A stretch of DNA of 64,000 nucleotides from Nemertoderma westbladi. Its lineage: Eukaryota; Animalia; Xenacoelomorpha. The notes beneath the pieces were generated by a model. It did not search any database. It was given only the letters and a program-made list of their open reading frames with translations, and had not been told where the DNA came from. Within the stretch, counting starts at the first letter, position 1. Each line of letters opens with the position of its first letter. Below, one piece after another: positions 1,061-64,000 of this stretch. The stretch spans positions 1 through 64,000 of the forward strand of contig JAUCBJ010000974.1 in the NCBI GenBank assembly GCA_032718475.1, given 5' to 3'. Both the position numbers and the translations under genes were made by a program.

Positions 1061-1540
1061 AGTATATAGAGTAGTAGTGTAGTATATAATCTTTTAACGC
1101 TTTTTTATATTTTATTTTACGCTTTTGCATATATCAAGCAATGAGGCGAATGTATGTACGGGAAATACAGCACATATAATGCGATGAATGGAAAAACGGC
1201 AGGCGGTGATATGAGTCGTGTTGTTAATATGACCCTCCACCCACACACTTATCAGGAGTTCGCCGAATATATAAGAAATATTTAATTACAATTTGAACTA
1301 ATTATATAATCTCGATTACTGAAAAACAAGTTAGTGTTTCAAAACAGAAAGACAAGGGTTGCACTATATGAATGGAAATATCCGGGCCCAGTTGTACTAG
1401 ACTCTCAACATCTAATTGTTACAGTGTAGTAGTTAGTAATATATTATTGTTATTACCATTATACTCAAAAATAATCTGACAGGCAACTATTTTACCAAAA
1501 ATAAACGCCCTTGTGATCCAATTAATATGAAACACGATTT

Positions 1541-2595: not shown

Positions 2596-2612
2596 ATCAT
2601 TACATTGCATTA

Positions 2613-3268
2613 CGTTGCTCATTGTTGCTCGTTCTTGTACTTTATTATTGCTTGTTATTGCTCATTGTTGCTCGTTGTTGTTCGTTGTTGCTCATTGTTG
2701 CTCATTGTTGCTCGTTCTTGTACTTTATTATTGCTTGTTGTTGCTCATTGTTGCTCGTAGTTGTTCGTTGTTGCTCATTGTTGCTCGTTCTTGTACTTTA
2801 TTATTGCTTGTTATTGCTCATTGTTGCTCGTAGTTGTTCGTTGTTGCTCATTGTTGCTCGTTCTTGTACTTTATTATTGCTTGTTGTTGCTCATTGTTGC
2901 TCGTAGTTGCTCATTGTTGTTCGTTGTTGCTCATTGTTGTTCGTTGTTGCTCATTGTTGCTCGTTCTTGTACTTTATTATTGCTTGTTGTTGCTCATTGT
3001 TGCTCGTAGTTGTTCGTTGTTGCTCATTGTTGCTCGTTCTTGTACTTTATTATTGCTTGTTGTTGCTCATTGTTGCTCGTAGTTGTTCGTTGTTGCTCAT
3101 TGTTGCTCGTTCTTGTACTTTATTATTGCTTGTTGTTGCTCATTGTTGCTCGTAGTTGTTCGTTGTTGCTCATTGTTGCTCGTTCTTGTACTTTATTATT
3201 GCTTGTTATTGCTCATTGCTGCTCATTGTTGCTCATTGTTGCTCGCTGTTGGTCATTGTTGCTCGTTG
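2613..3268. repeat. TTG/CTC-rich tandem repeat, ~73-bp higher-order unit
   Basis: Repeating ttgctcattgttgctcgttcttgtactttattattgc blocks with 73-bp periodicity (2761, 2834, 2907). The overlapping ORFs are artefacts. Confidence 0.9.
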
Positions 3269-3720
3269 TGCATTTTAGCACCTACCAACTATGGGAACAG
3301 CTACGGATATAATTACGCGTGATATTTATAATTTACCTGGAGGTATCAGTCCCCCGCTGCTGCTACCACCTAAAATACAATAAATAGTAATTCTATAAAT
3401 TAAATAGAAGAGCACGAACTCTTGTTCTCTTAATCAGCCTAATATTTAGCCTTATTCGTATTTCAGATTTGCCAGGAATGGCTATGGCTAATTAATTAGC
3501 TGCGAAGGATAAATAGAACTTCGCAATGTGAGAAAGTCAATTTCAGAATTTTCAGTCAGAAAGGCATAACCTGTCATCTGATAACCATCATCTGATAAAA
3601 CATCACTTAATTCAATATTATCAATATCGGAAAATGTTTTTCCCTTATGTACTCCTATTTTACCTTTACCAATAGCAATTAATACTTTCGATACCTGGGA
3701 TATTTCTAGTATCCGTATTT

Positions 3721-8372: not shown

Positions 8373-9016
8373 TAAATGTGTTGACGCCTCGGTCTAAGTT
8401 TGTAAATGTTTTTGGGTTCGTAATATGATGACGGATATTAAGAAATATAAAATGAATGAGTTGATGATAATAAGACATAGTTTAATATTTTATAATAATA
8501 ATTGACAATCGCACTCTCATTACACTCCTAATGTATATCATAATGCTACCTAATTGATAATAATATCCTATAAAAAAGCTACGATCTTTTATACTACTAT
8601 ATTTTATTATAATATGTTTCATGTGTCTATCACAGAAAGTTATATCCAATAGGATTTCACATACTGGGTGAAAAGTAAGGAACAGAAAATGATTGAGGAT
8701 TCACATCAAACTTATAACTCTCAATAACTACAGTAAAAAACTGGCTAAATTAATCGTGCATAGAGATAATGATTCCTGTCCTAAGGTAGACTAAAAATGT
8801 TGTACAGTAAGCAGCATTACAAATGACAGGTCGTGATTGACATATTATGCATGCTGAGTCTACATGTGCTTCGTGTTTACATATCGAATAATAATAAATA
8901 AAAAACGCATCTGAAATAACATGTGCCAAGGGGCAATTCATGCATGTCTTCTAATCTCGGGAAAATATGTCAAATAATTTTGGTGTTACATGGTCACAAA
9001 CGTTCTACCGTTAACA
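8373..9016 (-). repeat. Element A 3' LTR
   Basis: Near-identical to 15106-15749. Preceded on the minus strand by the purine-rich PPT GAGGGGTGGCTA (9017-9028). Confidence 0.97.
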
Positions 9017-9028
9017 TAGCCACCCCTC

Positions 9029-15000: not shown

Positions 15001-15016
15001 CGCCAGGTTCACTCAT
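9029..15016 (-). pseudogene. Element A gag-pol polyprotein (~1,995 codons) with one in-frame TAA at 14264-14266
   Basis: KFDGNP gag (DUF1759-like), three Cys/His knuckles, protease ALLDACSE, RT LRVVFDA...FYSDD, Pao RNase H LHIFCDAS...ELQA, integrase H-H-C-C, LDYLGP, SDNGTNF, WERLVR. ORFs 14264-15016 and 9029-14257 are in the same frame. Confidence 0.95.
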
Positions 15017-15086
15017 CTTGAAAGGGTGTTTCAGTAATTATTTGGGAACAAATCCCACAGAGTCATCGTAGTTAGTGGGTTGATGT

Positions 15087-15104
15087 ATCCGGTTCGAAGG
15101 ACCA
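15087..15104 (-). promoter_or_regulatory. Primer-binding site complementary to the tRNA-Tyr 3' end
   Basis: TGGTCCTTCGAACCGGAT directly after the 5' LTR, a typical BEL/Pao PBS. Confidence 0.85.
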
Positions 15105-15105
15105 A

Positions 15106-15749
15106 TAAATGTGTTGACGCGTCGGTCTAAGTTTGTAAATGTTTTTGGGTTCGTAATATGATGACGGATATTAAGAAATATAAAATGAATGAGTTGATGA
15201 TAATAAGACATGGTTTAATATTTTATAATAATAATTGACAATCGCACTCTCATTACACTCCTAATGTATATCATAATGCTACCTAATTGATAATAATATC
15301 CTATAAAAAAGCTACGATCTTTTATACTACTATATTTTATTATAATATGTTTCATGTGTCTATCACAGAAAGTTATATCCAATAGGATTTCACATACTGG
15401 GTGAAAAGTAAGGAACAGAAAATGATTGAGGATTCACATCAAACTTATAACTCTCAATAACTACAGTAAAAAACTGGCTAAATTAATCGTGCATAGAGAT
15501 AATGATTCCTGTCCTAAGGTAGACTAAAAATGTTGTACAGTAAGCAGCATTACAAATGACAGGTCGTGATTGACTTATTATGCATGCTGAGTCTACATGT
15601 GCTTCGTGTTTACATATCGAATAATAATAAATAAAAAACGCATCTGAAATAACATGTGCCAAGGGGCAATTCATGCATGTCTTCTAATCTCGGGAAAATA
15701 TGTCAAATAATTTTGGTGTTACATGGTCACAAACGTTCTACCGTTAACA
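15106..15749 (-). repeat. Element A 5' LTR
   Basis: Starts TGTTAACGG on the minus strand and matches 8373-9016. Confidence 0.97.
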
Positions 15750-20756: not shown

Positions 20757-20830
20757 TGGCCAATATGGGGCTCGAACCCATGACATTCGCGTTATTAGCA
20801 CGACGCTCTAACCAACTGAGCTAGATAGCC
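20757..20830 (-). tRNA. tRNA-Ile(AAT) gene or pseudogene
   Basis: GGCTATCTAGCTCAGTTGGTTAGAGCGTCGTGCTAATAACGCGAATGTCATGGGTTCGAGCCCCATATTGGCCA. D, anticodon and T stems pair; acceptor-stem positions 6-7 mismatch; T5 terminator downstream. Confidence 0.75.
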
Positions 20831-44469: not shown

Positions 44470-44900
44470 ATTAGAGTTAGTTAGTTAGTTAGGAGTTAGA
44501 AGGAGTTAGAAGGTACGTAGTACCTAGAGTCAGGAAACAGTTAGTTAGTTAGGAGGTACGTAGTACCGTTAGTTAGAGAGTTAGTTAGTTAGGAGGTACG
44601 TAGTACCGTTAGTTAGTAAAGAGAGTTAGTGGAGTTAGAGTAGTTAGGAGGTACGTAGTACCGTTAGTTAGTAAAGAGAGTTAGTGGAGTTAGTAGTAAG
44701 AGGGTACGTAGTACCGTTAGTTAGTGGAGTTAGAGTAGTAAGAGGGTACATAGTACCGTTAGTTAGTGGAGTTAGAGTAGTTAGAGGGTAAGTAGTACCG
44801 TTAGTCAGAGGTATTAGAGTAAGAGTTAGAGGGTACGTAGTACCGCTAGTTAGAGAGAGAGAGAGTAAGAGTTAGAGGGTACGTAGTACCGATTAGTAAT
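44470..44900 (+). repeat. C-poor tandem array with nine GGTACGTAGTACC hairpin units (two variant)
   Basis: Units at 44512, 44555, 44595, 44650, 44703, 44745, 44787, 44832 and 44878, separated by ttag/gag spacers. Confidence 0.9.
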
Positions 44901-44930
44901 AGGGGTAGAAGGGATATGTATAATATGGAT

Positions 44931-46832
44931 TGTTCGAAGAGACAGTAACAAAATACCCTGCAATATCTTACTGTAAAGTTTGTGAATCAAATCATAAATC
45001 CGACCTTCTCACCAAAACAGTAAACTCTAAGTAAGCGAATATATATTGCAGTATCGGTCTCTTATAACCGGTGAGGCAGAAAACAGTCTACGAACAGACA
45101 AACTTCGATAAAACAAAATCCCGCGCAGCGAATCCTAAAATCAGGCTGACTCACTGACGGAGTAAGGGGCTCGTATACTTTGCCGCGGTGTGATTTATAT
45201 GGTTGGGCGAGAAAGATGCTAGCTAGGTGCAGAAAGGTCTAACTAGCGGGCAAAGCACAGTATGGACAAAAATTATTTTATATATTTTGAGGTGTAAATA
45301 ATTTCTAACGCGCGTGTGTCTTGATTCTAAACAGTCAAAAGTCAGTTTTGCTCCTTCATATATATAATTACTGGGTCCGGTGTGCATTTTACAAATATTC
45401 TAATTTTGTAACTTGTAGGTCCAATACTCACGAATGATAAGGCTCCTTCCCCCTTTGTGTATTTCCAGGACTCAAATTCAGGCATAAGGTTAATACTACA
45501 CCCAGAATTCGTCAATTTTAATTTACCAGGTCCCTAATACTAAGAAGAAATGTGTTAGTTTACTACAGTAGGCGTACAGTTACTAATAGCTAGCCTGGTG
45601 TTCTTATCTAGAATTTTGGCTGCCTAGATGTGCACGGCAACTTCCTAACAGAATGTTGGCGGGGAGACGGTAGATGTTAGTATCCCTAAATAGCCTCAAT
45701 TTATTTGCGCCTAGTTGTAAACTGCCCTACCGCCTGAACGGTACAATCCCAATTCAGGTAAAACACAGTAACTCTTCTGGCCTACAAGTTCTAATGCAAT
45801 GGACACCGTTGTACTACAAACAGTCACAGACGCACCTGTACTTAGCAAGAGTTAGGCGTACAGTTTGCTGCACCCTACCAATGTGTATGCCTTGTACCGG
45901 TGTGCCTGCGTCCTATCTGTGTACTAGTATCTCTGCCTGCTCTCCCCCCGTAGGAATATGAAGGTCTACTGTGGGTTTTTTCTCTGAATTAAGACAGTAC
46001 GGTCCCTAGATGTAATTTTTAGCACACAGCGTGTCACTACCTCTACCTTCGATCTTTGGTCTTATACTTAGGTAGCAAGGCATTGAACGCTGTCTAACCT
46101 TTCAGGCGATGGGCGAATAACTCAAGAGTGATATTGTGGGTTGTCTCCTTCTACATTCCTCAGATGTTCTCGTTCATCGCTGTGGCCCGATGTCTAGCCT
46201 GCCATCCTGTCCCTCAGTTAGGTTCACCGTGGTAAAACATGATAAAAAAAAAGGGCAGATGTAACAAGTATTTCTAACTTTATTACAGAATATATACGTA
46301 AATGTAACAAGAAACTAATAGATAACTAATAAAGATTAGGATAAGCAAGAATGATTGATACACTAAGAGTGAGAGATTATTAACTAATGAACGAAATCGC
46401 ACCTTTTATAGCAAATTTGTGCTGCAATCAATCGAGAAAATTCTCGATTGTTCTATGAGTTCTAATAGGTTTTTAAAGATAACTATTGGTCCAGCGAATA
46501 TATAACTTGCACGACATTGGTTACTATCTAATAACTGCAATCCCATTGGTTAATCTACTTCGAGCAAATGCAATTTAATTTGTAGTGGTTAATTTAAATG
46601 AGTTGAAACTCTGCACAAAAAATAATTCGCACCTACTAGGATTCGAACTCAATACCTACTACATATAATTTCCAACGCTTTACCGACTGAGCTACTGAAC
46701 CACTTGAATAATCATCGTACAAATAGATATAGTAAATACAAATGAGGACTTAATGTAATCTTTATAGCAAAGTTAATTCGAACAAAATAAAATTTTCAAA
46801 ATCCACGGCATTTATGAGAATATAATTCTATA
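44931..46832 (-). repeat. Element D 3' LTR (1,902 bp)
   Basis: Matches 61713-63609. Minus-strand ends are TATAG...TCGAACA; preceded by TGGAGCGG. Confidence 0.95.
46629..46701 (-). ncRNA. tRNA-like Pol III cassette in the LTR (3' LTR copy)
   Basis: GGTTCAGTAGCTCAGTCGGTAAAGCG...GAGTTCGAATCC: A box and B box followed by T6. Acceptor and anticodon stems do not pair well. Confidence 0.6.
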
Positions 46833-47733
46833 CCGCTCCATGAAAACAGGATATTATCGTGCATAAAATATACGGTTTTCACCAATACTAATCAAATTAT
46901 GGAATACTTGGGACGTACTTACATATTTATAAATTAAATCTCAACAATAATACCTCTACATAATAATTCGATACAAAAATAATTACAAATTCAAACTTTA
47001 CGTATTTAAGGCTTTATTAAGTAAGTACAATATAAATCTAAATTAAATTCACCAAAATAAATCTATTGCATCTCAAATATTGCATAAATTCAAACAATCA
47101 CAAATACTAATACTACTTAGATATAAAACAAATTACATAAGTTCGGAATAAATCACAAGAAAGGCTCACAAGTCTTCCGTCTGCTCTTGCCTTCTATTTA
47201 ATGTAAATACAAATACTGCTTCTTTATAAAAGATAAATTGCATACTATTCGAAACAATAAATTGCGTAAGTTTGGAATGACTACAAATATAGCACTTTCT
47301 AAATATAAATCTTTACTAAATTGCATAAGTTTAGAATAATATTGCATAAGTTTAGAATAATACTGCATAAGTTTAGAATAATATAAACTCTTTTGCATCT
47401 CAAATATGAAATATAAATCTTTCAAATATAGATTCCTTCTAAATATAAAACTTTCTAAATTTCAAAATTGGAACAATACAAATACATAAGTTTAGAACAA
47501 TGTAAATTGCATAAATTTAGAATAATATAAATTGCATAAATTTAGAACAATATAAATTGCATAAATTTAGAGCAATATAAATTTTAAACAATACAAATTA
47601 CATAAACAATTCAATTTACATAAACAATTTGATTTACCTAAACAATGCATAAAACAATACATAAAACAATACATAAAACAAACAATTCATAAGAAAGGCT
47701 CACGAGTCTTCCGTCCACTCCTTCCTTCCCGCT

Positions 47734-50700
47734 TTAACGCTTAGCGGATCGAGCCCTGCCGCGTCCTCGAAAACTGCGTATCGGTGATTTAGCTCGTGAT
47801 ATGGGACTTGTGGGGCGAGCCACTGGTTTACTTTGGACGTTGGGAGATGGTACGACCATTTCCTCACATATTCGTCTCTTAGTTATCCCAAATCCTCGTC
47901 CAATCCCTCGTGACCGATCTGTTGTATCTACCGCTGGTAAAACGTCTGGGAACGCGCGAGAAGCGGACGACGCAGACCCAAGAGAAGCTTGCGCCCCCTT
48001 TTGATCAGCTGGTATATGTCCCGATCCTCCTTGCGGTTCTCTGGGAAGCGAAACCGTATCCCGAGTAATTTGAATAGTCGGTTCGTATCCCCTTCGTTCT
48101 TCAACATTGATAGTTTTCTTTAATTGTTGGCCCACTTTCTGAACCCTTATGATCCTGTGCTGTCCGTCCTCCCGAGGGTGACGTGCAGACGGCGCGACCG
48201 GAGTAGCTGGCACGTTGGTCGCCTTTAGGACCTCCTCTTCCTCGAATACGCTCGCTCGTATACGTTTATGGTAGAACGAGGCTCGGTACGCCCATGCGAC
48301 GGTTAACCAAGCTCCCTTATTTCGCTTTTCCGTTCGGAAACGATCAAATTCACCATATGTGATACGATTGACTACTTTCTGGAAGTTCCATGTATTCTTA
48401 TTGTCCGGGTGAATCTGTAACAAGTATTCGCGCACAACTCGAAATCCACTATCGTGAGGCAAATATCAACTACCTCGATTAGTTCGTCATATTGTGGCAT
48501 AGCGGAGATATATCCTTCCGACTGTGCTCTCATCGGGAATCGTCTTCTTTGTGCCGATACATGTTCGTCAGCTAAATCTTCCCAATCATCAAACAGTTTT
48601 CTCACGAGTTTTACAGATTCGTGTTCGTAAGGTATGTCTCGCAATTGACATTCAGATGCTCGATGTCCCTTTATATTGCAATATGTGCATTGAGCCATAA
48701 ATCTCCAGCAAGTATAAAATGTATGGGACCCTTGATCTCCACACCATCCACAGATTAGTTGAGTTGTAGTAATGTGCTTTCCACTGCACTTTGTCGAATG
48801 ATGTCCAGCGACGCCACATTTACCACACATCGTATTAGCAGGGTACCACACTCGCTCATATATAAGATCGCCAATGGGTCGAGCGCTTCCTCCCACACTA
48901 TAGTCATAATCGTCTGGGTCGATAGGTTGGTATGTTTCATAAGGTTGTATGCAAACTACAGCATCTGTTGCTTCTAGTTGTCGAATCTCCGTCTGAGATT
49001 TCTTCGGGAGGTTCCTTTCAATCTCAAGAAATTCCTCTAAAGGATCATCGATGGCCGTCGTTACTTCGAAATCATCACCTAAGTGACCGATAGGCGCACG
49101 CGTCTGCCGTGATTCGTCCGTAAGCTCCACGATACGTTCTCCTTCATAGGGTAACAATGTAAACATAGATGGTCTTTCGATAAGAGATCCCGCACAGCGA
49201 AGATACACGTCTCGAAATATACTAAATCCTGCTCGAGTGAAGGCATTACACTGAGCGTCGGAATTGTAGAAGGGTTCGAGAAACCGTCTAAACACATCGG
49301 TATGAATTCTCCCTTCCGCGTAGAATGTATGATCTTCTCCGAGGCAAAGTGGATGTCATTTAAGAGTCCGAGACACAATGTCGGCGACTAAGCAAACATT
49401 CACTGATGACTCTATCGCTAAATAATATTGTAGTACCGCTCTTGGAGGTGAAGTAATAGCCCAATATACGCATCCTCTCCATTTGAGCTGTGATTCAAAC
49501 TCATTTATATCTGGAGTATCACCTTCTCCATACGTTTCGATATACTTTGTTCTTTTACTTTCCTTGTAATCCCAATTAAACATCAAGTAGGAAATGTATC
49601 CAGTTCCGGTTTTCTGAGTATCATACTCACGGAAGTATCCTTGTTCTATAGACCACAGTATAAGAGGTCGAGTGTCGACGTAAGGTGTCGGTAATCGGTC
49701 GTCACTGTCCGACATGCCGGCGAAGTCGCTAATTAAGTCCTCTCTTACTCCTGATCCAATCTTTACAACAGTTTTATCTAAAATCATATTTCTCACCATC
49801 TTCGGTAACATTCTAGCATCGATATTGCAAGCCTGGTCCATTTTCTTTACTATATTAGTGATGAAATGGTGCCGCTTGGTAGTTCCTGGAGGTATAAGGC
49901 ATTCGCTTGTCGCTCCTTTATCTACTGAAAACGTGCAAAACTCCGTCTGCCGCTCTAATTTGTATAGTCTTGGAGGTTAGACTCTGCTGATGGCTGCCGC
50001 CCTCGTTATCATAAAACATGTAACCGTTTTCCTGAAACGATCTAAACGTCCTATTCCATTCGTCCAATAATTCTTCCGAAGGTTGCCAAATCTTCTCTAT
50101 GTCTTTCTCGTCCTCGAAACGAATGACTTTACCTTGCCAGTCCGCAGCGATATCTGTATCCGACTCAAAGGTTCCTGTTCCAATCCATAAGCTAATTGTT
50201 TTGGTTAAATATCCTTTCAGGTTACTCGGAGCTATATCAGCGCCAGCTCTATCCAGTTCCCTAAAGTCTTGAATATGAGGCGGAACATTATGCACGACCT
50301 TTTGCGTAATATGTCTACGTAAATCATATATCTTAACCATATCGCTTAGAACAACTGCAGGAAGAAACTCTAAGTTCGAAATGATTTCCGGATGATCCAC
50401 AATAGGTATTTCATACGTTGTATCTTGTCGAACTGGTATACTAATAGGGAAATTGAGTGTCGTACTCAATGGTTTCGTAGTTGAAGTACTATACGGTTGC
50501 ATTTCTCTTGTACTTTCCGGGGATGCAATCTGTAGTCTCTGAATAACGTTTTGAGCAAAATTTATACTCTCGAAAACTTCCGGTGTCATCTCCTTAGCTG
50601 AAGTTTGATCGTGTGACGTCCAATGGTAAGGTAGGCTCGCAAGTCTTCCGCCCCATTCTTCCATCTTACCTTTCTCGAAAGCCTTGTAGGCTCTGTATAG

Positions 50701-51225
50701 GCTAAGAGCTTCTTTCTTTTCGCGGGTTGACTGAGTCGCCTCGTCCAGCGTAAGTTCGAATACATCGGGTTCAACAACCTTAGGTGGGTAAACAACAATT
50801 TCTCCCGCCTTTGGTGCAGTCATAGCGAATGAATGATATGGATTCGATAAAGGATACCCTCCTTCCTGGTAGCGTAGTTGTTGATGGTTCGAACACCTCG
50901 CCAATATCGGTTCGGGATTTTCCTTATTCAAACGCATCGGAATCGCATTTCGTTGTTCGTGCATACAAGCACCGCATTGATAATAAAGTTTATAAACTGA
51001 AAATGCTTCCTTTGTTTCTCTATCGTCCCCTCGAGTTCGTCTGTAAAGATGCATTCCATCGAATTCATCGCGTACCGCGGGCATAGGTTCGTGCGCCTTC
51101 AGGTATTGCATAGTATGATACAAACGACTAATTTCGGTATCGGGATCTTCGCTAATATCTCCCGTATCACATAAATCGGCTCTCCTTGTATCCCCTTCGC
51201 CATTATTAGAGGTATGGTTACATGA
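47734..51225 (-). pseudogene. Element D ORF3 (~1,100-1,160 aa reconstructed): DEDDy 3'-5' exonuclease-like domain, 3 CCHC knuckles, Arg/Ser-rich tail
   Basis: ExoI FYDNEG..TIQIRAADGVLHVF (~50016-49930); ExoII LPKMVRNMILDKTVVKIGSGVREDL...YVDT; ExoIII-like YLAIE; knuckles CGKCGVAGHHSTKC, CGWCGDQGSHTFYTC, CTYCNIKGHRASEC. Frameshifts at ~49930 and ~48465; TGA at 49356. Confidence 0.72.
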
Positions 51226-53869
51226 TCATACTACTAGAGGGAATACAACAGAGTTTATTGTTAGTTGTGAGGAGATGTGAGAGTTTTCGTCTGCCCTTTT
51301 GGCTCGACAACGCTCTAACCTCCTACCCATAGCCTAAGATCTAGGGTTTCTTTAATGACACGCTGCTTCTTATCTAAAATTTTTGCCGAAATAAAAACGA
51401 ATTTGGGCTAAACTGGCTGTGAGTCTAAAATACTCACCTTTTGATCCCAAACTATTATCAGAAAATAAGCAATCAAGAATTAGTAATAAATATAGGGAAG
51501 TCTATTATTCGACGTAACTTATTGAAACAAGACCGTGTAAAATTTAATTAAAATTTAGAAAGGCTCGCGAGTCTTCCTTTTTCTTGTTTCTCTAATTTTA
51601 AGTTCCACCCGACTGTACCCTGAAATCTATTCACTGGAGAAAATTTTAAAATTTTTCAAATCCAAATGGATTGTCTAAAATTTCGAAAATGTCTCAATAT
51701 TGTGAGTTCCAAGTAGAATTCCATTTCTTATACCTACAAATCCCGCTCCTATGTGACACATAAGGGTACTACCCTCAATGTTCACATATAAAGACAATGG
51801 AATTCTACCGCTGTCTTTACTACGGTGTACAGGTACGTGGAAATCTATTTGTAAACTCCTTACTATTTACTAACATTTGTTGGAGACTTGTAATCTCCAG
51901 ACTTGTTTCGCGTCTCTTCAAGAAGTACGAGACGTTGAGTCGGTCTGTCTACTGTACGACCGTCAATTGTCCGTACAGTCACGGTTCTTGTCACTCCATC
52001 CATAGATGGATGTGTGTCTAAAATTACACCTGTTATCCAGAAGCGTCTTTTTAGATTCACTTCTGCCAACAGCACGTGATCTCCCGCTCTTAAAGTGCGA
52101 GTTTTGTTGTACCAGGTTGTTCTGGCAGAAATAGAGGGCAAATAATGATTTTGCCATATTTCCCAGAATTTGTTAGCTAATAGTTGCATGATTTTCCACG
52201 CTTTTCTACGGTAGCTATCGCATTCTATTGGAATAGAAATAGGCATTAATGTAGTCGGTGCCTGCATAAGCAGGTGTGCTGGTGTTAAAGCAAACTGGGA
52301 TTGTTTGTTATCGGGTACTAATACTATTGGTCTAGTATTTATTATTGCCTCGATTTCAACAAACAATGTTGTCAGTTGGTCGTCTGTCAAGATGTGGTTT
52401 ACTGGAATTACTTTTGCCATGGCTGTTTTTATAGATCTAATCAATCTCTCCCAGACTCCGCCTCTCCATGGACTATCTGGAGGATTAAACTTCCAAACAA
52501 TCTTGTAAGGACGTAGTTCGTTTGAGATTTGATCATGATCTAATTTCTTAAAGGCTCTAGCAATTTCATTTCGAGCACCAACAAAGTTTGTACCTTGGTC
52601 TGAGTACAAGCATTTTACTAGTCCGCGTCTAGCGATAAATCGCCGCAATGCTAGTATAAAAGCGTTGGTGGAAAGATCCATCACACGTTCAATATGAACT
52701 GCCCTACTGGACATGCATGTGAAAATCAGTCCCCAGCGTTTTACTATTATACGTACACGTTTCGTATGTATGGGACCAAAGCAGTCAATTCCAGTCTCTG
52801 TGAAGGGTGGTCTGAATGCCTGTAGTCGTGCTTGTGGAAGTTCACTCATTTCTTGGGTACTTATTCTAGAATGTACCTTCTTACAAATAATACACATACG
52901 CGTCACTGAACTTAACGCTTTACTGGGTCTAATTAATACAAATCTTGTACGTAAGTATGAAAGACAGTGGTGTCTTCCAGCGTGTTTCAGATGTAAATGT
53001 GCATCCAGTATCATTGCACGTTGTAATTCGTGATGTTGCGGTATTATTATTGGGTACCTAAAATCAGTATTAAAGTCAATGTTTTGAAGCCGAGATTTAT
53101 GACAAATTAAGCCATTATAAATTATCGGACTCCAACTCAATATTGGTGACGACTTGATTGGTTGACCTTGACTTATAGATGTGAATTCGCGTGCGAAATA
53201 TCGCAATTGGTAATGGCGAATTAATTTAATTTCACATCTGTCAATCTCAGTCAATGTGAGTCGACGTGTAAAGTCGCGTTTGCCTTTAACGTATTGTACA
53301 AAACGTACAATCCACGCTAATTTTCGGCACGCGTTGGTCCAAGAATCTGTCAAATTTACAATACGGTCGACGTAAGTATTTGTGACGTCATCAGGTAAGT
53401 CAATGGGGAATTTGGAAGGTTTTGTTTTACTAGATGGGCCCACGAGTCCGCCGGTAGGTATTCCCTTGTTGACTGTTGATCCGTCCGGGTCTACAAGTAA
53501 TTTGTCCTTCTTCGTCTTCTTACCTTGATTGTCAGTACTTTGTGTGTCGATCCCTAATGGTGGTTTTAACTCTATGGGATCACTGGGTTTCGGTAAATTT
53601 ATTTTTGTGCCGATATTAATCCCAGGTTTCACCGTAGGTTGTAAGGTTGGTATGTCTCTTGAGCGTAAAGTAACACCTGTATTTACATTAGCGTAGGTAC
53701 TACCCACATCTGTAATACATGAGGTTTCACTGTACTTATGGTTACTCAAGGGTGTCAAGTTTGGTAGTTTGTCAATAGAAGGCCGCTCCAATAGGGAAAC
53801 TGCGGCTTTACTATGTGTTGCTATGTTACTAATGTCTGGTAGAACATCTTGTGAAATGTCTGATAAAAT

Positions 53870-54035
53870 GTTTCGCGGAACATCCGGCGAAACGTCTAGT
53901 GACATGTCTGGCAAAATGTCTGGTTGACCGTCTGGTAACATGTCTGGTTGACCGTCTGGCGATACGTCTGGTTGACCGTCTGGCGATACGTCTGGTAACA
54001 TGTCTGGTTGACCGTCTGGCGATACGTCTGGTTGA
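53870..54035 (-). repeat. 12/24-bp coding repeats (QPDVSPDG) in a long RNase H-integrase linker
   Basis: cgtctggttgaccgtctggcgata repeats. Confidence 0.85.
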
Positions 54036-57000
54036 GAAAGGCTCGCAAGTCTTCCTGCCCTAACTTTGTGAGTTATATTCTTCCATTTCGCCTTTGGTTT
54101 CTTCTTAAGTTTCGCCGTTGTCTTTTTCTTTGCTTTACCTTTCTTTGGTTTTTTAATTTCGGCGTCCTTAGGAATAGTATTAGACTTGTTATCGTATAGT
54201 GGCGGCCAATGTTGTGTTGCTCTTTGTAAGAATTGTGGTCCGTGTTGCCAAAATTTCTTGTTTTCCGGTTTACAGAATTCCTCAGGCATCATTCCTCGCG
54301 ACGCAATATCAGCTGGATTTTGTGGTCCGGGACAATGTCGCCAATCTTCCTTTATTGAACGGTCTAGAATTTCTGCACGATGGTTAGCTACGAATGTCTT
54401 GAATTCAAGTGTGTCGTTGTTTATATAAAATAAAACTAACGTCGCGTCAGTCCAATAAAATATCTGTAAACTTGACTGTAATTCAGTCTGTATGAGGTTT
54501 ACAATTGTCGTTGACAGAGTTGCGGCTTGTAGCTCAGCGCGTGGTGTCGTCATATACTTAGTAGGCATTGTTTTAGCCTTAGAAGTAATGAGCGATACAT
54601 CAAACTCATCTGAGTCTACTTGTCTGCGCAAATACGCTGTCACTCCAAAGCCGTTGTCACTGGCGTCGGAAAAACAATGTAATTCTAAGTTGTCAGGAAA
54701 TGTCGTCTGTAATGGAAAGTACACCCGGGGTATGGAATAATCCTCTAGCGAAGATAATTGCGCCTCCCAAGTCTTCCATAAGTCCACTTGTTCGTTTGAG
54801 ATCGGTCCGTCCCATGTCAGTCCATCTTTCCAAATACTGCGCATATATATTCTTGCTTGCAGTATTATTGGGCTGATGAAACCTAATGGATCGAACAGTC
54901 TGCTTAGTTTCGACAAGCAAGACCTCTTTGTCAGAGAATCCCCTTCAGCGTCCAGTTTTACTTTCACTCAAAAGTTGTCTGTGTTCGGGTCCCAAAATAG
55001 TCCCAACACCTTGGTCGTCGGCAGTGGTTCGAACTCTAAGTCAATGTCCCCACCCCCACGTTCAGTCGTTTCGAATGAATTTACTAATTCGGCGCTGTTT
55101 GAGGCAAACTTAGTGAGGTTAAAACCTCCGCCTGCTAAACAGTCCCGTAATTGATGTGCTACTGTTATAGCACGTTCTACTGTGTCACAACTTTGTAATC
55201 CATCGTCTACATAAAAGTCTCGTTCTACGATCTCGATTACCTCTGGGTCATACATATGTTTCTGATCCCTAGCGGTCTGTTTTAGGGCGTACATAGTGCA
55301 GTTTGGGCTGTCTCTGGCACCGAAAACGCGAACTTGCATTTGGTAAGTCGCCGGTGGTTGACTTAAGTCTCCATCCGGGTACCAGAGGAACCTCAAACTG
55401 TCTCTGTCTCGCTCTAACGCTCGCACTTGGTGAAACATCGCTTCGACGTCACAAGTAAATGCTACTTGGCGCTGACGGAAGCGCATAATCACCCCCATGA
55501 GATAATTATTCATGTTTGGTCCGTCCATCAACTCACTGTTGAGAGACATTCCTTCAAACAGGGCCGCGCAGTCGTTAACTACGCGTACTTTATCAGGTTT
55601 GTCGGGGTGTCTCACGTAGTGATGTGGCAAATAGTATGTCTGGTCTGTCACAATCTCTGGGTTAGTCATTTTGATAGCGTATCCTTTTGTTAAATACGTC
55701 TCCATCTGGGTATTATACTGCAGATGGGCTTTCTCGTCCTTTAATAAACGTTGTCGTATTGAGTGTAAACGTCTTAAGGCTAGCGGATAGTTATTGATAA
55801 GTTTAGGGCTTTGGCTACGCCATAGCATCCCTACCTCATAATGTCCGTCTTTCGTCTGGCGGATAGTATCTTCCATGATCTTCAAAGATTGTTTCTCTTG
55901 TTCCGACATACACGGTTCATAACTACCTGGTTCGGCTGTATCTTGTTCCAACCACCTGATAGTTTTCTCTGTTAATTCCTTGTCTAGTGCGGCTTGTTCT
56001 ACTTGACAGTTCCTTAATGCGTCGTCATCGATATCGACGGGCATCGTTAATGTTATTGGTGTAGATAGACTCGCAAGCCTTCCGGCGTTATCATCTGTCG
56101 TCGATGGAACCTCTGCCTGACTCCGCTTCTTCTCAATCTCTATACTAACCTTGTGGATTGGCTGCTCTTTGTGACTTATCGTATTTGCTACACACGTCGT
56201 ACCTGTAACATTGTCGTGTTTTGTCGAACGTAGTGTAGTATAGTCTATGTCAGGTGAAAAGGAATGAATCGAAGTTGTAGTTAGTAAACTACATGTACTT
56301 TGTACATCGTCTTCCTCATCACTTATATCCAGTGTGCGCACAGGCGCTCGAGTATACCACCCTATCGGAGTTCTACAGGCGTAAGCGTTTCCCGCTACGA
56401 CTACCGATGGTCTGGTTTCCCACACTTGATGTAAGTTGAATTGGTCCGTCCCGATCAGCATTGCTACCGACCGATAATTAACAGGACATTCGGGTACACC
56501 AAGGTGTCTGAAATACTTACGGTCCTCTAAGGATTGCTCCGGCACTGGACCCAGTAGATTACTAAAGTCCTTTGTGGCCGCAAAAGTTAAATCCTTAAAG
56601 GGTAACAAAGACCTCTCCTTTTCGCTATGTTGCGATTTCGGAAGAAGAGTGTCCAAGTTTAACTTAACTCGTGTCACTGGTATTGCACGTTGTCCATGCA
56701 TACTACTTACAGTGTACTTCACGTGCTTACCTTGTCTAAGGTCCGTCACGACATCAGCTACTTTCTCATGCACGTAGCTGTGAGATGAGGCTGAATCTAG
56801 GATAGCGTAGATCCTTTTGCTCCCTTTTGTGCCAGTAATCTTAATAGGAATTACGCTGAAACCTTTTAGTTGATCAGGCGTCAGAAGAGCGATCGATGGT
56901 TGTTCGTCTCCCTCCGAGTATATGTCGTCGTCTTCAGATTCTTCACCAGAAGACCCGGATTGTTCTGGGAAGCAATCCCAAATATGTGTCACAAACGTTG

Positions 57001-58547
57001 GTGTTGTTCTTGATTCTCGTGTTGTGTAGACAGTGTTACATTTCGCTACGGCTTCCGGGTGTTCCCTAGTGAAGCGTTTTGTCGGCGTATGGCTGTCTGT
57101 GTGGAGCAGACCATCATGGTTGCGTCCACAGTAAGGACAGGTGTCCGTATTTGGGCAATCCTTGCGGACATGTCCATGTTGTGTACACCTCCAACAAGAA
57201 TCTAACGGTCTTATTTGAAGCCGTCGTTCCTCTGAGTTTAATTCACGAAACAGATGACATCTCCTCAGCTGGTGATTGGTATACCGCTTATTAAGCCGCT
57301 CGCAGTATTGGCAACCGCTAAAGTCGGCATTCAGTTGTTGCCTGGTCTGTTTGATGCCAATAGGTGCGGACAGTTTACTACCGTTAGGAAATTGTCTTGT
57401 TTCTGTTGGTGTGGCGTAAGTGGCCGTCCTTGTGGATGTCGTCGGTTGTTTTTGTCGGTTTGATGAAGGTAAGGTGATTCCTTCTGCTACGATGTGTTGG
57501 TCAGTGTAGTTAGATCGAGTCTCTACTACTGCTTCCCTGGATATTAATAGGTACACATCCTCCAGTTTCAAGAATCCACCTCTTTCCTCCCGCTGGTATT
57601 CGATTTTTCGCCACTCCCGACGAAGTCGATGATGTAGTCTTCCTATAATTTTTAATAGGACTGTGGGAGTGTTCCCATAATCGAGTTGTCCAATAGATGT
57701 TAATGTAGTGATAGCGTTTTTAATTTCGTCAGCTAATTTAAGTAAGTCGACGGGTTTTGTAATAGCCCCCCCCTTACAGAGTTCCTCTATCACTGACTTG
57801 GCCATACTAACCGTACCTCCGTAGATTGAAGTTAAGCGATCGTATGCTAACTCGAAGGCATCTGGTACACCGACAAAGGTCTCTGCCAAACGTTTGGGTT
57901 CTCCCGATAATGTTTGAAGCAGGTAATTAAACTTCTCCCTTGATGTAAAGGCGCACACAGCGATCTGAGATTCAATGTAGTCTACGAAAGTGTGCCAATG
58001 TTTGGAGCTACCGGAAAACTTAGGTGGTTGTTGCACCGGTAGTCCTTGTCTAGCTGCGAATTTAGCTATTTCCTCGGCAACGTTCAAAGTTCCGCGTCCT
58101 GGGTTGGCAATCTGGCTGATGTTCTCTCTTCTAGGCTCTTTTCTTTGATACGATGTGTTTCTCGACGGTATTGGTCTTTGCGGAACTTTAGGATTTCTAT
58201 TGTGTTCGAATTCGGAATTTCTCGAACTGTCGGTGTGAACTTCCTCCAAGCGTTAGTCGATCTGGGCCAACTTGTTGACAACTGGTCTCAGAATGTCGGC
58301 AAATTGTTGGGTACTGATCGCGTCCGTTGGTTGTAACGCCCTTTGTATTGGTGTATTTTGTGGAGGATTATCGATAAATGAATTATCTGAACGCTCACAT
58401 TTACATTCGTCGGCCGCTCCTGTTCTAAATACCTCGCGTTCCGGGTAATCCGACTCGCTTGAAGTACTACTGTCACCTGGATACAGTGGTCGACGTGCTC
58501 GTGTCCGTTGCGTCGTTCGAATTTTAACATTCCGTTTCGGAACATCG

Positions 58548-59035
58548 TCCACTGTTCTCCGTTGTTCGGTAGGCTCACAAGTCTTCCTCGAAGTCGTAGA
58601 TTGCGATGTAAACTGATTAAACGGTCGCGTGTCCACTGTTCTCCGTTGTTCGGTAGGCTCACAAGTCTTCCTCGAAGTCTTAGATTGCGATGTAAACTGA
58701 TTAAACGGTCGCGTGTCCACTGTTCTCCGTTGTTCGGTAGGCTCACAAGTCTTCCTCGAAGTCGTAGATTGCGATGTAAACTGATTAAACGGTCGCGTGT
58801 CCACTGTTCTCCGTTGTTCGGTAGGCTCACAAGTCTTCCTCGAAGTCGTAGATTGCGATGTAAACTGATTAAACGGTCGCGTGTCCACTGTTCTCCGTTG
58901 TTCGGTAGGCTCACAAGTCTTCCTCGAAGTCATAGATTGCGATGTAAACTGATTAAACGGTCGCGTGTCCACTGTTCTCCGTTGTTCGGTAGGCTCACAA
59001 GTCTTCCTCGAAGTCGTAGATTGCGATGTAAACTG
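58548..59035 (-). repeat. 84-bp coding tandem repeat (28 aa, ~5.8 copies) in gag
   Basis: Near-identical units FTSQSTTSRKTCEPTEQRRTVDTRPFNQ with period 84 (58570...58990). Confidence 0.97.
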
Positions 59036-61712
59036 AACCGGTGGTCGAGTGACAGCGTTTGAATCTAAAGGCCTTGTAGGCCTAAACGTCTTTGGGTACG
59101 TGTAGTGCGTAACGGGTTTTGGTGTCGAAGGTGGACTCACCTGTTTTGTCGTTAGTAGTGCAGGTCCGGTCAATAAACTACTACGATCGGTAATCGGTGG
59201 GTTACTTACCTGGACTTTCAGAATAGGCGACGACGTTGCTCTTGGCGGTATGAACTTGTCCGGAATAACAAACCTGTGTTCCGTCGCACCATGGATAGGA
59301 GAAATATTACTACTACCCGCAATCGAAACAGGTTCCTTAGTCGTAACTGGTGCAAACATAGGAGTTACTTGAGGGAATCTTTGACATAAGTCTTTAACTA
59401 ATTGTCTTTCTCGCCCAGGTGCCCCTACACTTCCTTCCTTCATTCGTTCCTGAATTTGGCGGTGCCTTACCTCTATCTGGTCCAAATCATGTCCGTCACG
59501 AGATCTCATCAATCGATCGCGGGCTAGAAGATCCAGATTTTCCTTGGTTTTGGCTAGTTCTCTCGCCTTCCTTTCGAGTTCGAAATGAAGTTTAACTTCT
59601 TTCTCGCGTTGTTCCGTCTGTTGTTGTTGCGCCTCGAACTCCGCTTGTCGTATAGCTGATTGAGCCTTTATTTGTCGTTTTTTCAACTCGGCTCAGGCTT
59701 CCGAAACTCGCCTTTGTTCGTCCAACTCTGCTGCTCGTCGCTCTAAATCAGCTGCTGCTGCTCGTCGCTCTAAATCAGCTGCTGCTGCTCGTCGCTCCAA
59801 CTCAGCTGCTGTCGCTCGTCGCTCCAACTCAGCTGCTGTCGCTTGTCGTTCCAACTCAGCTGCTGCTGCTTGTTGCGCTAACTCAGCTGCCGCTGTTCGC
59901 TGTACTATTTCTAACTCCAACCTTTCCATCTCAGCCACTTCCAACTCGGCTTGTTCTTGCAGATGAGAGATTCTCGCAACATTTGCAACGCGTAGTTTTT
60001 CTTCCTCTACCGCCGCTTGTACCGTTAACAGTTGAGTTTGTTCCTCAATTTCTCGTTGTTGTCTATAGTGCTGTTGTTGCTGTCTAGAAATTTCTGACGT
60101 CACTATACTTACCTCGCCAATTTCGCTGCGAATACTCACTAACGATTGGTCCAGTATTCCCGGTGCCGATTCGATTTGTACGGGTGAAGTTCCCCTCGTA
60201 TATTCCGGCACGGTTTCCAAATCGCCGACGTCTTCGCCGCACATACGTAAGTGATCCGTCAGATGTTTCAATTGTCCATCCAGTCGGTACAGTTCCTGTT
60301 CTTCCTCGGGCTGTAATAACTCGTCGGAAACCGACTCACCTAGCAACTGGTCCGCTTGTTCCTGTTGTATCTGTCTAACGGTCGTCTTAAACTGAATCAG
60401 TTTCTCTCTAGCGATCATTAATTTCTCGAGGATTCTAAACTGTGTGTCCATATCCTGTCTCTGTCTAGCTAGATCTTGTAGACCAATTAGATTATCTACA
60501 GACTTATGTACTTTACTCTGTACTCTAACCTGTAGGGTGTAGAACTCGAACCGAGACATCGGAGCGGTCAACTCGTCTAATATGCGTTGGCCTTCTCCAA
60601 TACTCCTGGTAATATGCGCCATGTATCCTCCGACGCTTCTAACCACACTTTCCTGGCTTCCTACTGAACTTACCATGTCCGTTTCTCTATGTCTAGGTTG
60701 CGGGACCGTTAGAAAATCCTCGGTCCTGCCGTCGCCTCGTACTACGGCATCCGGTACTCCCGTTGGATGTACTGGTGACGCGCACGGTGTAGGTTCGGTA
60801 GGCTCACGAGTCTTCCCCTGTGGTTCTTCCGCTTCTGACTTATCCGCGTTACATGAGTCATAGTCGGTTTGTGTATTCTTCGTATAGTCTTGTTTGTCAC
60901 TCATTTCGGTAGTTGTAAGTCAAGTAAAGTGAGTGTCAAAATATCAAACTTACCGTATTTTATTTCTAAACGGTATTAATTACAGTCATATAAAATTAGC
61001 CTACCGGCTGATTTTATAGCAGATGGATAAAATTAGCCTAGCGGCCAATTTTACAGCAAATAAACGTCACGGAATAAGTATATAATAAAATTAGCCTAGC
61101 GGCCAGTTTTATAACAAATAAATCGGATAACGATATGCGTTATCAAAAGGTAAATTAAATACAATAATACGGACTAATTCAGCAATAAACAAAGAAATCG
61201 TACGGAATGCATAAATACTTGAGACAGTGGAACCCACAATAATTTTAACTAATACGGTAATGCCTAACTTATTTATGCAACTTTTCGAACTCACCCCCTC
61301 CAATCATTCTCCAGAAAAACAGATTCCCAGATACAAACCGGACGTGAACCTTTCCGTTTCCAGCGTTGCGGACGAAGTGCGATTTTCCCAACCAAAGTTG
61401 TTGAGTTATCTATCTCCCAAACTTGCTAAACACGGTCTTGCTCTCGTTACAGTCTAGAAATGAGCTCTGAATCCTGAAAAACAAAAGAGTTAGGTTTTAC
61501 TTTTACGAAAATTTTGTACCGGTACAATATGGTATTTAAACCCTTTTAAACACCGGTATTCAATTCCAAATATTTTACACGCGGTTCAGATCAAATTTTA
61601 TTTCAAAAAATTAGCACTTAGCTAATCAAATATAAACTTTTACCTCAAAATACAAAATTTTTCAAATAACTTTAGTCCTACCGAACCGTAGTTCAGTAAA
61701 ACATATTCCTAC

Positions 61713-63609
61713 TATTCGAAGAGACAGTAACAAAATACCCTGCAATATCTTACTGTAAAGTTTGTGAATCAAATCATAAATCCGACCTTCTCACCAAAAC
61801 AGTAAACTCTAAGTAAGCGAATATATATTGCAGTATCGGTCTCTTATAACCGGTGAGGCAGAAAACAGTCTACGAACGGACAAACTTCGATAAAACAAAA
61901 TCCCGCGCAGCGAATCCTAAAATCAGGCTGACTCACTGACGGACTAAGGGGCTCGTATACTTTGCCGCGGTGTGATTTATATGGTTGGGCGAGAAAGACG
62001 CTAGCTAGGTGCAGAAAGGTCTAACTAGCGGCAAAATAAAATAATAAAATTATTTTATATATTTTGAGGTGTAAATAATTTCTAACGCGCGTGTGTCTTG
62101 ATTCTAAACAGTCAAAAGTCAGTTTTGCTCCTTCATATATATAATTACTGGGTCCGGTGTGCATTTTACAAATATTCTAATTTTGTAACTTGTAGGTCCA
62201 ATACTCACGAATGATAAGGCTCCTTCCCCCTTTGTGTATTTCCAGGACTCAAATTCAGGCATAAGGTTAATACTACACCCAGAATTCGTCAATTTTAATT
62301 TACCAGGTCCCTAATACTAAGAAGAAATGTGTTAGTTTACTACAGTAGGCGTACAGTTACTAATAGCTAGCCTGGTGTTCTTATCTAGAATTTTGGCTGC
62401 CTAGATGTGCACGGCAACTTCCTAACAGAATGTTGGCGGGGACACGGTAGATGTTAGTATCCCTAAATAGCCTCAATTTATTTGCGCCTAGTTGTAAACT
62501 GCCCTACCGCCTGAACGGTACAATCCCAATTCAGGTAAAACACAGTAACTCTTCTGGCCTACAAGTTCTAATGCAATGGACACCGTTGTACTACAAACAG
62601 TCACAGACGCACCTGTACTTAGCAAGAGTTAGGCGTACAGTTTGCTGCACCCTACCAATGTGTATGCCTTGTACCGGTGTGCCTGCGTCCTATCTGTGTA
62701 CTAGTATCTCTGCCTGCTCTCCCCCCGTAGGAATATGAAGGTCTACTGTGGGTTTTTTCTCTGAATTAAGACAGTATGGTCCCTAGATGTAATTTTTAGC
62801 ACACAGCGTGTCACTACCTCTACCTTCGATCTTTGGTCTTATACTTAGGTAGCAAGGCATTGAACGCTGTCTAACCTTTCAGGCGATGGGCGAATAACTC
62901 AAGAGTGATATTGTGGGTTGTCTCCTTCTACATTCCTCAGATGTTCTCGTTCATCGCTGTGGCCCGATGTCTAGCCTGCCATCCTGTCCCTCAGTTAGGT
63001 TCACCGTGGTAAAACATGATAAAAAAAAAGGGCAGATGTAACAAGTATTTCTAACTTTATTACAGAATATATACGTAAATGTAACAAGAAACTAATAGAT
63101 AACTAATAAAGATTAGGATAAGCAAGAATGATTGATACACTAAGAGTGAGAGATTATTAACTAATGAACGAAATCGCACCTTTTATAGCAAATTTGTGCT
63201 GCAATCAATCGAGAAAATGCTCGATTGTTCTATGAGTTCTAATAGGTTTTTAAAGATAACTATTGGTCCAGCGAATATATAACTTGCACGACATTGGTTA
63301 CTATCTAATAACTGCAATCCCATTGGTTAATCTACTTCGAGCAAATGCAATTTAATTTGTAGTGGTTAATTTAAATGAGTTGAAACTCTGCACAAAAAAT
63401 AATTCGCACCTACTAGGATTCGAACTCAATACCTACTACATATAATTTCCAACTCTTTACCGACTGAGCTACTGAACCACTTGAATAATCATCGTACAAA
63501 TAGATATAGTAAATACAAATGAGGACTTAATGTAATCTTTATAGCAAAGTTAATTCGAACAAAATAAAATTTTGAAAATCCACGGCATTTATGAGAATAT
63601 AATTCTATA
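61713..63609 (-). repeat. Element D 5' LTR (1,897 bp)
   Basis: Matches 44931-46832. Confidence 0.95.
63406..63478 (-). ncRNA. tRNA-like Pol III cassette in the LTR (5' LTR copy)
   Basis: Same as 46629-46701 with one substitution. Confidence 0.6.
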
Positions 63610-64000
63610 TGGATATTAGTTAGCAGTCAGTAGCGAGAGGGGGGCATATGAGTACAGTTGGATAGATCGTGTAGGCCACGCGACATATACTGCTGTACTG
63701 CACAGGCCCATAGAATAGGTCAGAATGTGGATTATGAAATAGAATAATCCATAAACAGTAAATAGTAGAAATAGATCAAAATAAAATAGAATAAGAATAG
63801 GGCTAAAATTTTAACAAATTATAGTAACAGTAGGAAAGAAATTCTGGAATACAATAAAAGTAACTGACAAAACTGCAAATTAGGGTACATCTAATAGCTT
63901 CAAAATTAAGTAGTAGGGATTTAGGCTATAAGGCGAAATTAGACAAGGAATAGGCCATTATCGGACCGTACAGACCATCCTAGCGGCATCACTCACTTAT

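Follow-up and report, generated by a model that had tools for sequence, protein, structure and literature searches.

What kind of signal is a 20-nucleotide motif that recurs, always in one orientation, through the coding and non-coding parts of a giant retrotransposon? The motif lies in an 18.7-kb element in the window, by which we mean the whole 64,000-nucleotide stretch of Nemertoderma westbladi DNA that was analyzed. This element is a BEL/Pao LTR retrotransposon with a genomic RNA of ~17 kb. Its paired 1.9-kb LTRs (5′ LTR, 61715..63609; 3′ LTR, 44931..46832; all features described here are on the minus strand) are 99.05% identical, and the element is flanked by the 5-bp target-site duplication ATCCA. 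A single gag-pol frame of 3013 codons (51863..60904), interrupted by three in-frame stops (59693-59695, 58253-58255 and 54968-54970), has matches to DUF1759, Peptidase_A17 (E 2e-42), Integrase_H2C2 and DUF5641, in the order PR-RT-RH-IN. Its identity to BEL polyproteins is 35-44% for most matches listed, and it is ~1000 amino acids longer than typical relatives. Gag has a zinc-knuckle region (57155..57313) with two CCHC-type patterns (zf-CCHC, E 0.019), and we spotted a third knuckle-like stretch after these by eye. We infer splicing of the element from consensus-like splice-site sequences only.

We found 15 copies of the motif in this element, which occupy 10 sites if the six copies in a gag repeat are taken as one. 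The 12 exact copies of the original prediction are all present when the pattern is read on the plus strand, and the same pattern has none on the minus strand. A predicted variant near 56066 (56064-56083) raises the number of matches with at most two mismatches to 13, compared with 0.02 expected, and 0 of 100 shuffles reached 13. The degenerate copy reported near 53435 is also real (53433-53452), and a 15th copy at 49089-49108 was not among the 14 first noticed. Within the window, the motif is indeed confined to the element: the best score outside is 12.2 bits, and the pairing is not kept there. Neither LTR has a copy, nor does the region between the 5′ LTR and the gag ATG, and no 10-mer is dispersed along a 7.4-kb standard BEL element that is also in the window. 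We rejected two candidates with chance-level scores and broken pairing (54758-54777 and 56339-56358), as well as a perfect hairpin at 52959-52978 (E 0.46, loop CCAC), which lies on an integrase motif common to 14 of 120 relatives.

The sites extend over 13.7 kb, about one per 1.5 kb, and are spaced more evenly than random (P 0.026). The copy nearest the 5′ end of the element is in the gag N-terminus (60797..60816; loop CGUG, peptide GKTREP). Six copies with UGUG loops follow (58568..59007), one in each 84-bp gag repeat (RKTCEP). A variant with a UGCG loop is in the PR-RT linker (56064..56083), and the RH-IN insertion contains both a typical copy (54036..54055, UGCG) and a second variant (53433..53452, CGUG). 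Another copy is in the pol-ORF3 spacer (51558..51577, CGCG). ORF3 (47734..51225) is in four pieces, with two frameshifts and one stop (49356-49358), and includes a copy whose loop is UGCG here and CGCG in most family contigs (50630..50649). The third variant is in the ORF3 exonuclease-knuckle linker (49089..49108, CGUG). Two copies are in the 3′ UTR, one ~20 nt past the ORF3 end (47693..47712, CGUG) and one at 47159..47178 (UGUG).

Seven of the 10 sites are coding, in two frames (GRLASL and GGLVGP versus RKTCEP, GKTREP and RQTRAP), and three are non-coding, as had been claimed. The proposed position of the pol copies in inter-domain linkers was borne out in a comparison with 40 of 120 homologues. 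All five gag-pol sites fall where these 40 standard-size relatives show 0-26% occupancy. Peptides like those encoded by the motif occur in 2 of the 120 relatives, once each and with widened patterns; these relatives have at most 44% identity, and we judge the matches to be chance. Exact-pattern scans elsewhere gave single matches only (26 metagenome, 2 viral and 9 prokaryotic loci), which we treat as chance, and tblastn of the 26 metagenome loci found no match to gag-pol or ORF3. The motif is present in other copies of the family, and in the family contigs 1 of the 20 motif letters is variable, as are 3 of 96 flank letters, which gives no contrast.

The motif might have spread neutrally, by template switching or gene conversion. 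Those in gag are tandem duplicates, and flanks are common to both 3′-UTR copies (83% identical over 48 nt). However, apart from this pair the flanks are at background identity (means of 5.9 and 5.4 of 20), and both flanks are alike in only 1 of 45 site pairs, contrary to the long shared flanks that the original prediction had associated with recent duplication. A neutral origin also accounts for neither the compensatory changes nor the kept mismatch that are described below. Alternatively, the hairpin could be a localization signal read by the host, of the I-factor ILS/Egalitarian type. There is precedent for a host adaptor that reads a retrotransposon stem-loop (PMC13186709), but Egalitarian signals have no overt sequence patterns and have U-A pairs in longer helices. 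We regard these two readings, even taken together, as very improbable.

Other origins were rejected. Protein constraint and flank duplication do not account for the array. CpG decay does not explain the YGYG loop pattern: the element is not CpG-depleted (CpG o/e 1.18), and the loop Gs are invariant while the Ys vary. Multiple internal polypurine tracts, a possibility prompted by purine-rich upstream flanks, leave the pairing unexplained. AAGACA is an NXF1-binding motif, and we rejected the likeness to it because the three variants change AAGAC.

The variants provide the main evidence that the motif is base-paired. In a profile based on sequence only, the three divergent copies are the next ranks (24.7, 20.7 and 16.1 bits), where 300 shuffles give 0, 0 and 0.01 expected matches. 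All three keep the pairing by substitutions in both pairing partners, namely A-U to G-C in the copy at 53433 (in which a U-A pair also becomes U·G), the closing U-A to G-C in the copy at 49089, and A·C to G·U in the copy at 56064, the last as originally proposed. The simulated chance of kept pairing in the three is 0.053 × 0.017 × 0.053 (product about 5e-5), or 0.163 × 0.081 × 0.165 (about 2e-3) with a transition bias. On the sense strand, pairing holds in all 60 cells for stem pairs 1, 2, 4, 5, 7 and 8, and the covariation score of 0.181, whose basis is three single events, was reached by 4 of 500 shuffles. In correction of the predicted stem of eight positions, 6 of 10 sites have no pair at the third position. 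Since the divergent copies change both partners, the base pairing appears to be under selection. Together with the two frames, the non-coding sites and the background flank identity, this supports the proposal that the signal acts at the nucleic-acid level and is base-paired, and that protein-level selection is insufficient. Rfam covariance models searched against 44900-63700 gave two chance-level matches (E 2 and 3.9), neither on the motif.

These double changes would not be expected if the motif were bound as double-stranded DNA by a factor of the element or of the host, as are the sites of VANC anti-silencing proteins in VANDAL transposons. There is nonetheless a resemblance to VANDAL21: both have a family-specific motif in the same orientation, amplified in tandem repeats, and an accessory protein (PMC5735166). 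Moreover, our motif has a CpG core and forms a quasi-palindrome. The VANC motifs differ in being dsDNA sites of 9 bp that lie mostly outside coding sequence, and the part of the paper used here reports no base-pair covariation for them (PMC5735166), while the motif in our element is mostly coding and missing from both LTRs. ORF3 has knuckles rather than a known dsDNA-binding fold. A DNA-level site is accordingly among the least probable readings.

Which strand folds is less clear. The original prediction placed the hairpin on the sense RNA. One-sided changes between G-C and G·U and between U-A and U·G keep pairing on the sense strand only, and the loop pattern also favors this strand. However, the sense hairpin is barely stable: when forced, it has +0.9 to -2.4 kcal/mol, and with 40-nt flanks its probability exceeds 0.5 at 1 of 10 sites, versus 5 of 10 for the antisense hairpin. 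At 9 of 10 sites, the antisense fold lies between -3.9 and -5.1 kcal/mol, and RNAalifold folds the antisense alignment (-3.26) but not the sense alignment. The share of standard pairs is similar (83.8% antisense, 81.3% sense). Folding programs prefer the antisense reading, so the sense RNA is a plausible but inferred working strand.

An antisense hairpin, with G·U in place of A·C and a CRCR loop, could mark antisense transcripts, e.g. precursors of piRNAs or siRNAs, to be destroyed or diverted. In addition to the stabler fold, three of its pairs have double changes (2 of 500 shuffles), and the even spacing would mark any antisense fragment longer than ~2.7 kb. By contrast, 7 of 10 sites cannot form pair 2, core pairs are lost in two variants, and the loop offers no invariant G to a knuckle. 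Folding is weak for either strand as DNA (0 to -1.7), which also weakens a version involving minus-strand cDNA. We therefore think antisense tagging distinctly unlikely.

On sense RNA, the second and fourth loop nucleotides are G at all 10 sites, with no change at any of the 20 G positions, and the Y positions are U in 11 of 20, giving four loops: UGUG (7 of 15 copies), CGUG, UGCG and CGCG. YGYG is self-complementary on the sense RNA through C-G and U·G, so two genomes could be joined in register at homologous sites. Most sites are predicted to form self-duplexes over the full 20 bp (-8 to -24 kcal/mol), and the PAL1/PAL2 switch of Ty1 converts a labile stem-loop into an intermolecular duplex (PMC9503155). 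Yet by duplex energy the UGUG loop is only 93rd and 134th among 256 loops, antisense duplexes are about equally stable, and GGCC, CCGG and GCGC, which are strong palindromic loops too, never occur. A role in dimer linkage thus seems improbable.

Our preferred, though tentative, explanation, to which we give somewhat less than an even chance, is that the hairpins are multivalent tags by which the element recognizes its own RNA for RNP assembly and packaging, and predicted ligands of zinc knuckles. The 15 copies would fold on the genomic sense RNA into small hairpins with YGYG loops. The A·C or G·U pair, two pairs below the loop and wobble-shaped in both forms (C·A+ is isosteric with G·U; PMC5769748), would be the specificity mark. 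CCHC knuckles of the element, either in the Gag NC or the triple knuckle of ORF3, could dock on loop G2 and G4 and thereby stabilize an otherwise weak hairpin. Binding at many points might then achieve recognition and assembly of the ~17-kb RNA, with packaging or condensation as the outcome.

Retroviral NC hairpins offer a close parallel. HIV NC knuckles contact G2 and G4 of the GGAG (SL3) and GGUG (SL2) tetraloops of HIV-1 (PMC7599994), and RSV NC binds the UGCG tetraloop of microPsi SL-C (PMC5035970), which is one of the four loops in our element. There is also counter-evidence from RSV, where changing UGCG to GAGA left Gag specificity undiminished and changing GC to UU left packaging undiminished (PMC5035970). 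The retroviral hairpins are single and located in the 5′ leader, whereas the array has 10 sites and none in the leader. Four of the 10 sites are within or after ORF3 and would therefore also be on a spliced ORF3 mRNA, unlike classical psi signals, which are restricted to the 5′ leader or unspliced RNA.

The array resembles the multiple dispersed packaging signals of ssRNA viruses such as MS2, parechovirus and the HBV pregenome (PMC6281560), i.e. many short stem-loops with a common loop motif across coding and non-coding RNA. In contrast to these, our array is in an LTR retrotransposon, almost the whole 20-mer is fixed rather than the loop alone, a wobble-shaped mismatch is kept, and binding is a prediction. 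Our literature searches found neither such an array nor cis signals in BEL/Pao elements. For few model LTR retrotransposons is it known how the RNA is selected and compacted, with signals near the RNA ends in the account of Ty1 (PMC9503155), and this applies especially to giant elements. A nearly fixed 20-nt tag running through coding linkers is a precise candidate ligand for two candidate knuckle domains. Such a tag would extend packaging-signal-mediated assembly to retroelements and offer a first candidate substrate for the DEDDy-type ORF3 proteins.

ORF3 appears to combine a DEDDy-like 3′-5′ exonuclease (49410..50016), whose domain is split by a frameshift, with three CCHC-type knuckles (48648..48827; pattern, and zf-CCHC with E 0.018). 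The exonuclease identity is only a lead. We found no exonuclease match for it in Pfam, PHROGs, NCBIfam or PDB. An ORF3 homolog, P0124 (E 2.2e-05 library-wide; 24% identity over 467 columns), has PF01612 clusters as its top Atlas matches (score 0.87, 158 shared features), with structure rows below the bar. The AF2 model of P0124 has a pLDDT of 34, too low for use. Among proteins of 306-977 amino acids we found no further homologs of P0124, and no viral locus matched it. Bdelloid Juno and Vesta LTR elements similarly have an extra ORF past pol with an exonuclease-like (DEDDy) domain, for which roles in RNA 3′-end processing or silencing were proposed (PMC5408684). Ours differs in being BEL/Pao and in joining this domain to three knuckles. 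The words "stem-loop" and "hairpin" have 0 occurrences in that paper (PMC5408684).

ORF3 could read the same sense-RNA tags for a step other than packaging, such as export, stabilization, or degradation of untagged RNA with tagged self RNA spared. The giant element has both the motif and ORF3, and the standard BEL of the window has neither. Tags are also within ORF3 and the 3′ UTR, the layout of exonuclease plus knuckles recurs in P0124 and in the top Atlas cluster, and the bdelloid proteins lend the idea a precedent. Against this, the exonuclease is a lead only, and a single element cannot separate ORF3 from large size. We consider this reading rather unlikely. A more elaborate and somewhat less likely version is self/non-self tagging of transposon RNA: ORF3 would read a hairpin barcode every ~1.5 kb, and the element could thereby spare and gather its own RNA while destroying untagged RNA or antisense piRNA precursors. 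Because each strand has one wobble, the barcode would be readable in its A·C form on sense RNA or in its G·U form on antisense RNA. If true, such tagging would be an RNA-level counterpart of VANC anti-silencing. By eye, P0124 has all of what we take to be the DEDDy motif set (DxE, D and YxxxD), and the ORF3 of the window has DxE, D and, as its last motif, YxxxE.

Exact copies of the stem-loop motif occur 12 times on one strand and never on the other, and 13 matches with at most two mismatches were observed, compared with 0.02 expected. These counts bear out the original prediction of a 13-copy array in a single orientation. A weight matrix built from seven exact sites, without structural information, next ranks 56064–56083 (24.7 bits), 49089–49108 (20.7 bits) and 53433–53452 (16.1 bits). 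The numbers expected at these scores are 0, 0 and 0.01, respectively (300 shuffles). The first and last correspond to the variant and degenerate copies that had been proposed, while 49089–49108 is an additional copy. With reverse-strand readings of the motif sites themselves excluded, the highest remaining score outside the element is 12.2 bits, and inside it 8.2 and 7.6 bits; these hits, unpaired and at chance level, were dropped. A covariance model recovers the same 15 copies, with nothing new below E 0.46, and the total is thus 15 copies at 10 sites. We did not count a perfect 8-bp hairpin at 52959–52978 (−7.1 kcal/mol) inside the integrase zinc finger, which has the outer arms of the motif but the loop CCAC.

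All copies lie in a BEL/Pao LTR retrotransposon of 18.7 kb on the minus strand (~44931–63609), with 1.9-kb LTRs that are 99.05% identical to each other and a 5-bp target-site duplication. Its gag-pol, which contains BEL domains, spans 3013 codons in a single frame interrupted by three stops, ~1000 residues more than the 1945 aa that 40 relatives average. A 640-nt spacer follows, and then the extra ORF region, ORF3, in four pieces. Every one of the 30 bins across 46900–58500 has matching Logan contigs from organism A. Given that these contigs number in the thousands and are 80–100% identical, the giant element represents a multi-copy, diversified family. A standard BEL/Pao element at 8373–15749 (7.4 kb; 644-bp LTRs, 99.5% identical) lacks the motif.

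The motif is a real, selected, base-paired array. In the sense reading, all 60 cells of pairs 1, 2, 4, 5, 7 and 8 are paired, and each of the three variant copies alters both partners of one pair. In simulations with an equal number of random changes, the joint probability of keeping the structure is ~5e-5 to 2e-3. The covariation evidence amounts to three events, and its shuffle control takes no account of relatedness. An 8-position stem with an A·C mismatch had been proposed. The mismatch stands, as nine sites have A·C at pair 6 and the tenth has G·U, but the full stem does not, as pair 3 is paired at only 4 of 10 sites. Because C·A+ and G·U are isosteric, according to excerpts of PMC5769748, pair 6 looks like a conserved wobble shape.

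We infer both the strand and the function of the array. The sense hairpin has an energy of +0.9 to −2.4 kcal/mol, or −2.4 to −6.5 kcal/mol with the wobble scored as G·U. In a 40-nt context, its probability exceeds 0.5 at 1 of 10 sites and that of the antisense hairpin at 5 of 10. RNAalifold folds the antisense alignment, but not the sense alignment. These results would fit an antisense tag, which we regard as unlikely. Read on the antisense strand, the motif loses pair 2 at 7 of 10 sites, and core pairs are broken in two variants. Read as sense RNA, the stem survives in every variant: the invariant G2 finds C or U as its partner, and U8 finds A or G. The sense RNA is probably the working strand.

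The motif sites span two reading frames and three non-coding places, which excludes protein constraint as their cause, as had been claimed. The proposed location in inter-domain linkers also holds: all five gag-pol sites fall at positions with 0–26% occupancy in relatives (40 of 120 homologues aligned), at a P of only ~0.03 because 49% of the protein is low-identity. Flank duplication is rejected as a cause based on mean flank identities between sites of 5.9 and 5.4 of 20. An identity of 10/20 on a side is reached by 4 of 45 site pairs, and on both sides solely by the two 3′-UTR copies. That the array is a host localisation signal, or arose by neutral spread (cf. parts of PMC13186709), is very improbable. 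Intervals between sites are more regular than chance would give, with a CV of 0.53 (P 0.026) and a largest gap of 2714 nt (P 0.06). The 20 nt upstream of each motif on the sense strand are purine-rich (mean 13.8/20 versus 10.9 in the background, P 5e-5), a post hoc observation in which two sites are related.

The giant element has a CpG o/e of 1.18, and loop changes across sites comprise 11 C/U and no G/A, a pattern not expected from symmetric methyl-C decay. That the motif is a VANC-like DNA site (cf. sections of PMC5735166) is a reading to which we give very little credence. Dimer linkage by the motif is quite unlikely; for duplex energy, the UGUG loop comes no higher than 93rd and 134th among 256 loops.

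Within the family, the sole in-motif difference at 50630–50649 in four runs is the first loop Y, which is C in 96–100% of depth. The flanks of this site are equally quiet (3/96 variable), and therefore the family data show no contrast between motif and flank. The surrounding ORF3 stretch, 50585–50700, has 4 variable places in 116 letters in the family contigs, versus ~1500 listed differences in 11.6 kb; this low variability may be an effect of the short stretch compared. One contig of the Logan run X2 differs in 11 of 59 letters, aligns to the motif end and then diverges from the window. Among the joints listed, the best-fitting contig ends point to UGCG as the loop of the spacer site in some family copies. 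X2 contigs also join a motif copy to ~47063 (depths 8036 and 1799), where the element in the window has none. The best-fitting ends among the joints listed imply that other family members have an extra copy near this position, or a rearranged 3′ UTR. In the 120 distant relatives, traces of motif-coded peptides are at chance level only.

We tentatively propose, by analogy, that the weak sense-RNA hairpins are read by knuckles of the element, encoded in Gag (57155–57313) or as three knuckles in ORF3 (48648–48827). The knuckles would stabilise the hairpins on reading them, and reading at many points would lead to self-recognition and compaction of the unusually long RNA. Such an array would work like dispersed packaging signals (excerpts of PMC6281560), a class to which it may belong. 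According to portions of PMC7599994, the two knuckles of HIV NC accommodate G2 and G4 of the GGAG and GGUG tetraloops. Weak pairing is also noted there for the first site that this NC binds with high affinity. For RSV NC, which binds UGCG, mutation weakens binding 10,000-fold, although changes to the RSV loop reduced neither Gag specificity nor packaging (both from passages of PMC5035970).

ORF3-driven export, stability or protection has a modest chance of being the function instead. Among 1.84 billion representatives, ORF3 has one informative homologue, P0124 (E 2.2e-05), with which it shares an N-terminal domain and knuckles; the other match is a plant knuckle protein. In the Atlas, P0124 adjoins clusters that combine an exonuclease (PF01612) with CCHC (0.87, rated by the tool as a lead only), while profile and PDB searches of ORF3 and P0124 found no exonuclease. 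DEDDy ORF3s of unknown function are described for bdelloid LTR elements in parts of PMC5408684. P0124, at 24% identity, has RRTCKP in its exonuclease–knuckle linker (~residues 377–386), near the RKTCEP reading of the motif; this likeness, seen at the protein level, may be a coincidence.

The motif has no match in Rfam. In a full-text collection with few subscription journals, we found no account of retrotransposon RNA carrying dispersed or repeated hairpins and, judged by title, no work on BEL signals in the literature on Belpaoviridae cis-acting RNA. None of the papers retrieved on BEL elements, an extra ORF and an exonuclease contains the term "BEL Pao" in its main text, and the excerpts of a giant-transposon review (PMC6431247) describe no such array. 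The hairpin array in a BEL/Pao element is without counterpart in the literature searched and resembles known dispersed signals.

The LTRs of the giant element start at TA, not TG (61690–61716 and 46832), and a tRNA primer site is not obvious downstream of the 5′ LTR. By eye, both LTRs contain a tRNA-like stretch (~46630–46705 and ~63405–63480) that ARAGORN does not call; a tRNA-Ile(AAT) gene lies elsewhere in the window (20757–20830, minus strand). A splice-donor-like site occurs at ~60950, 50 nt upstream of the gag ATG, and acceptor-like sites occur in the 5′ UTR (~61474) and immediately upstream of ORF3 (~51233), which suggests a possible spliced ORF3 mRNA. Tandem repeats have 12-bp units at 53840–54035, directly after the motif copy at 54036–54055, 27-bp units in gag (59700–59916) and 40–55-bp units adjoining the 3′ LTR (44480–44912). 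Satellites with 68-bp and 10-bp units occupy 1398–3270.
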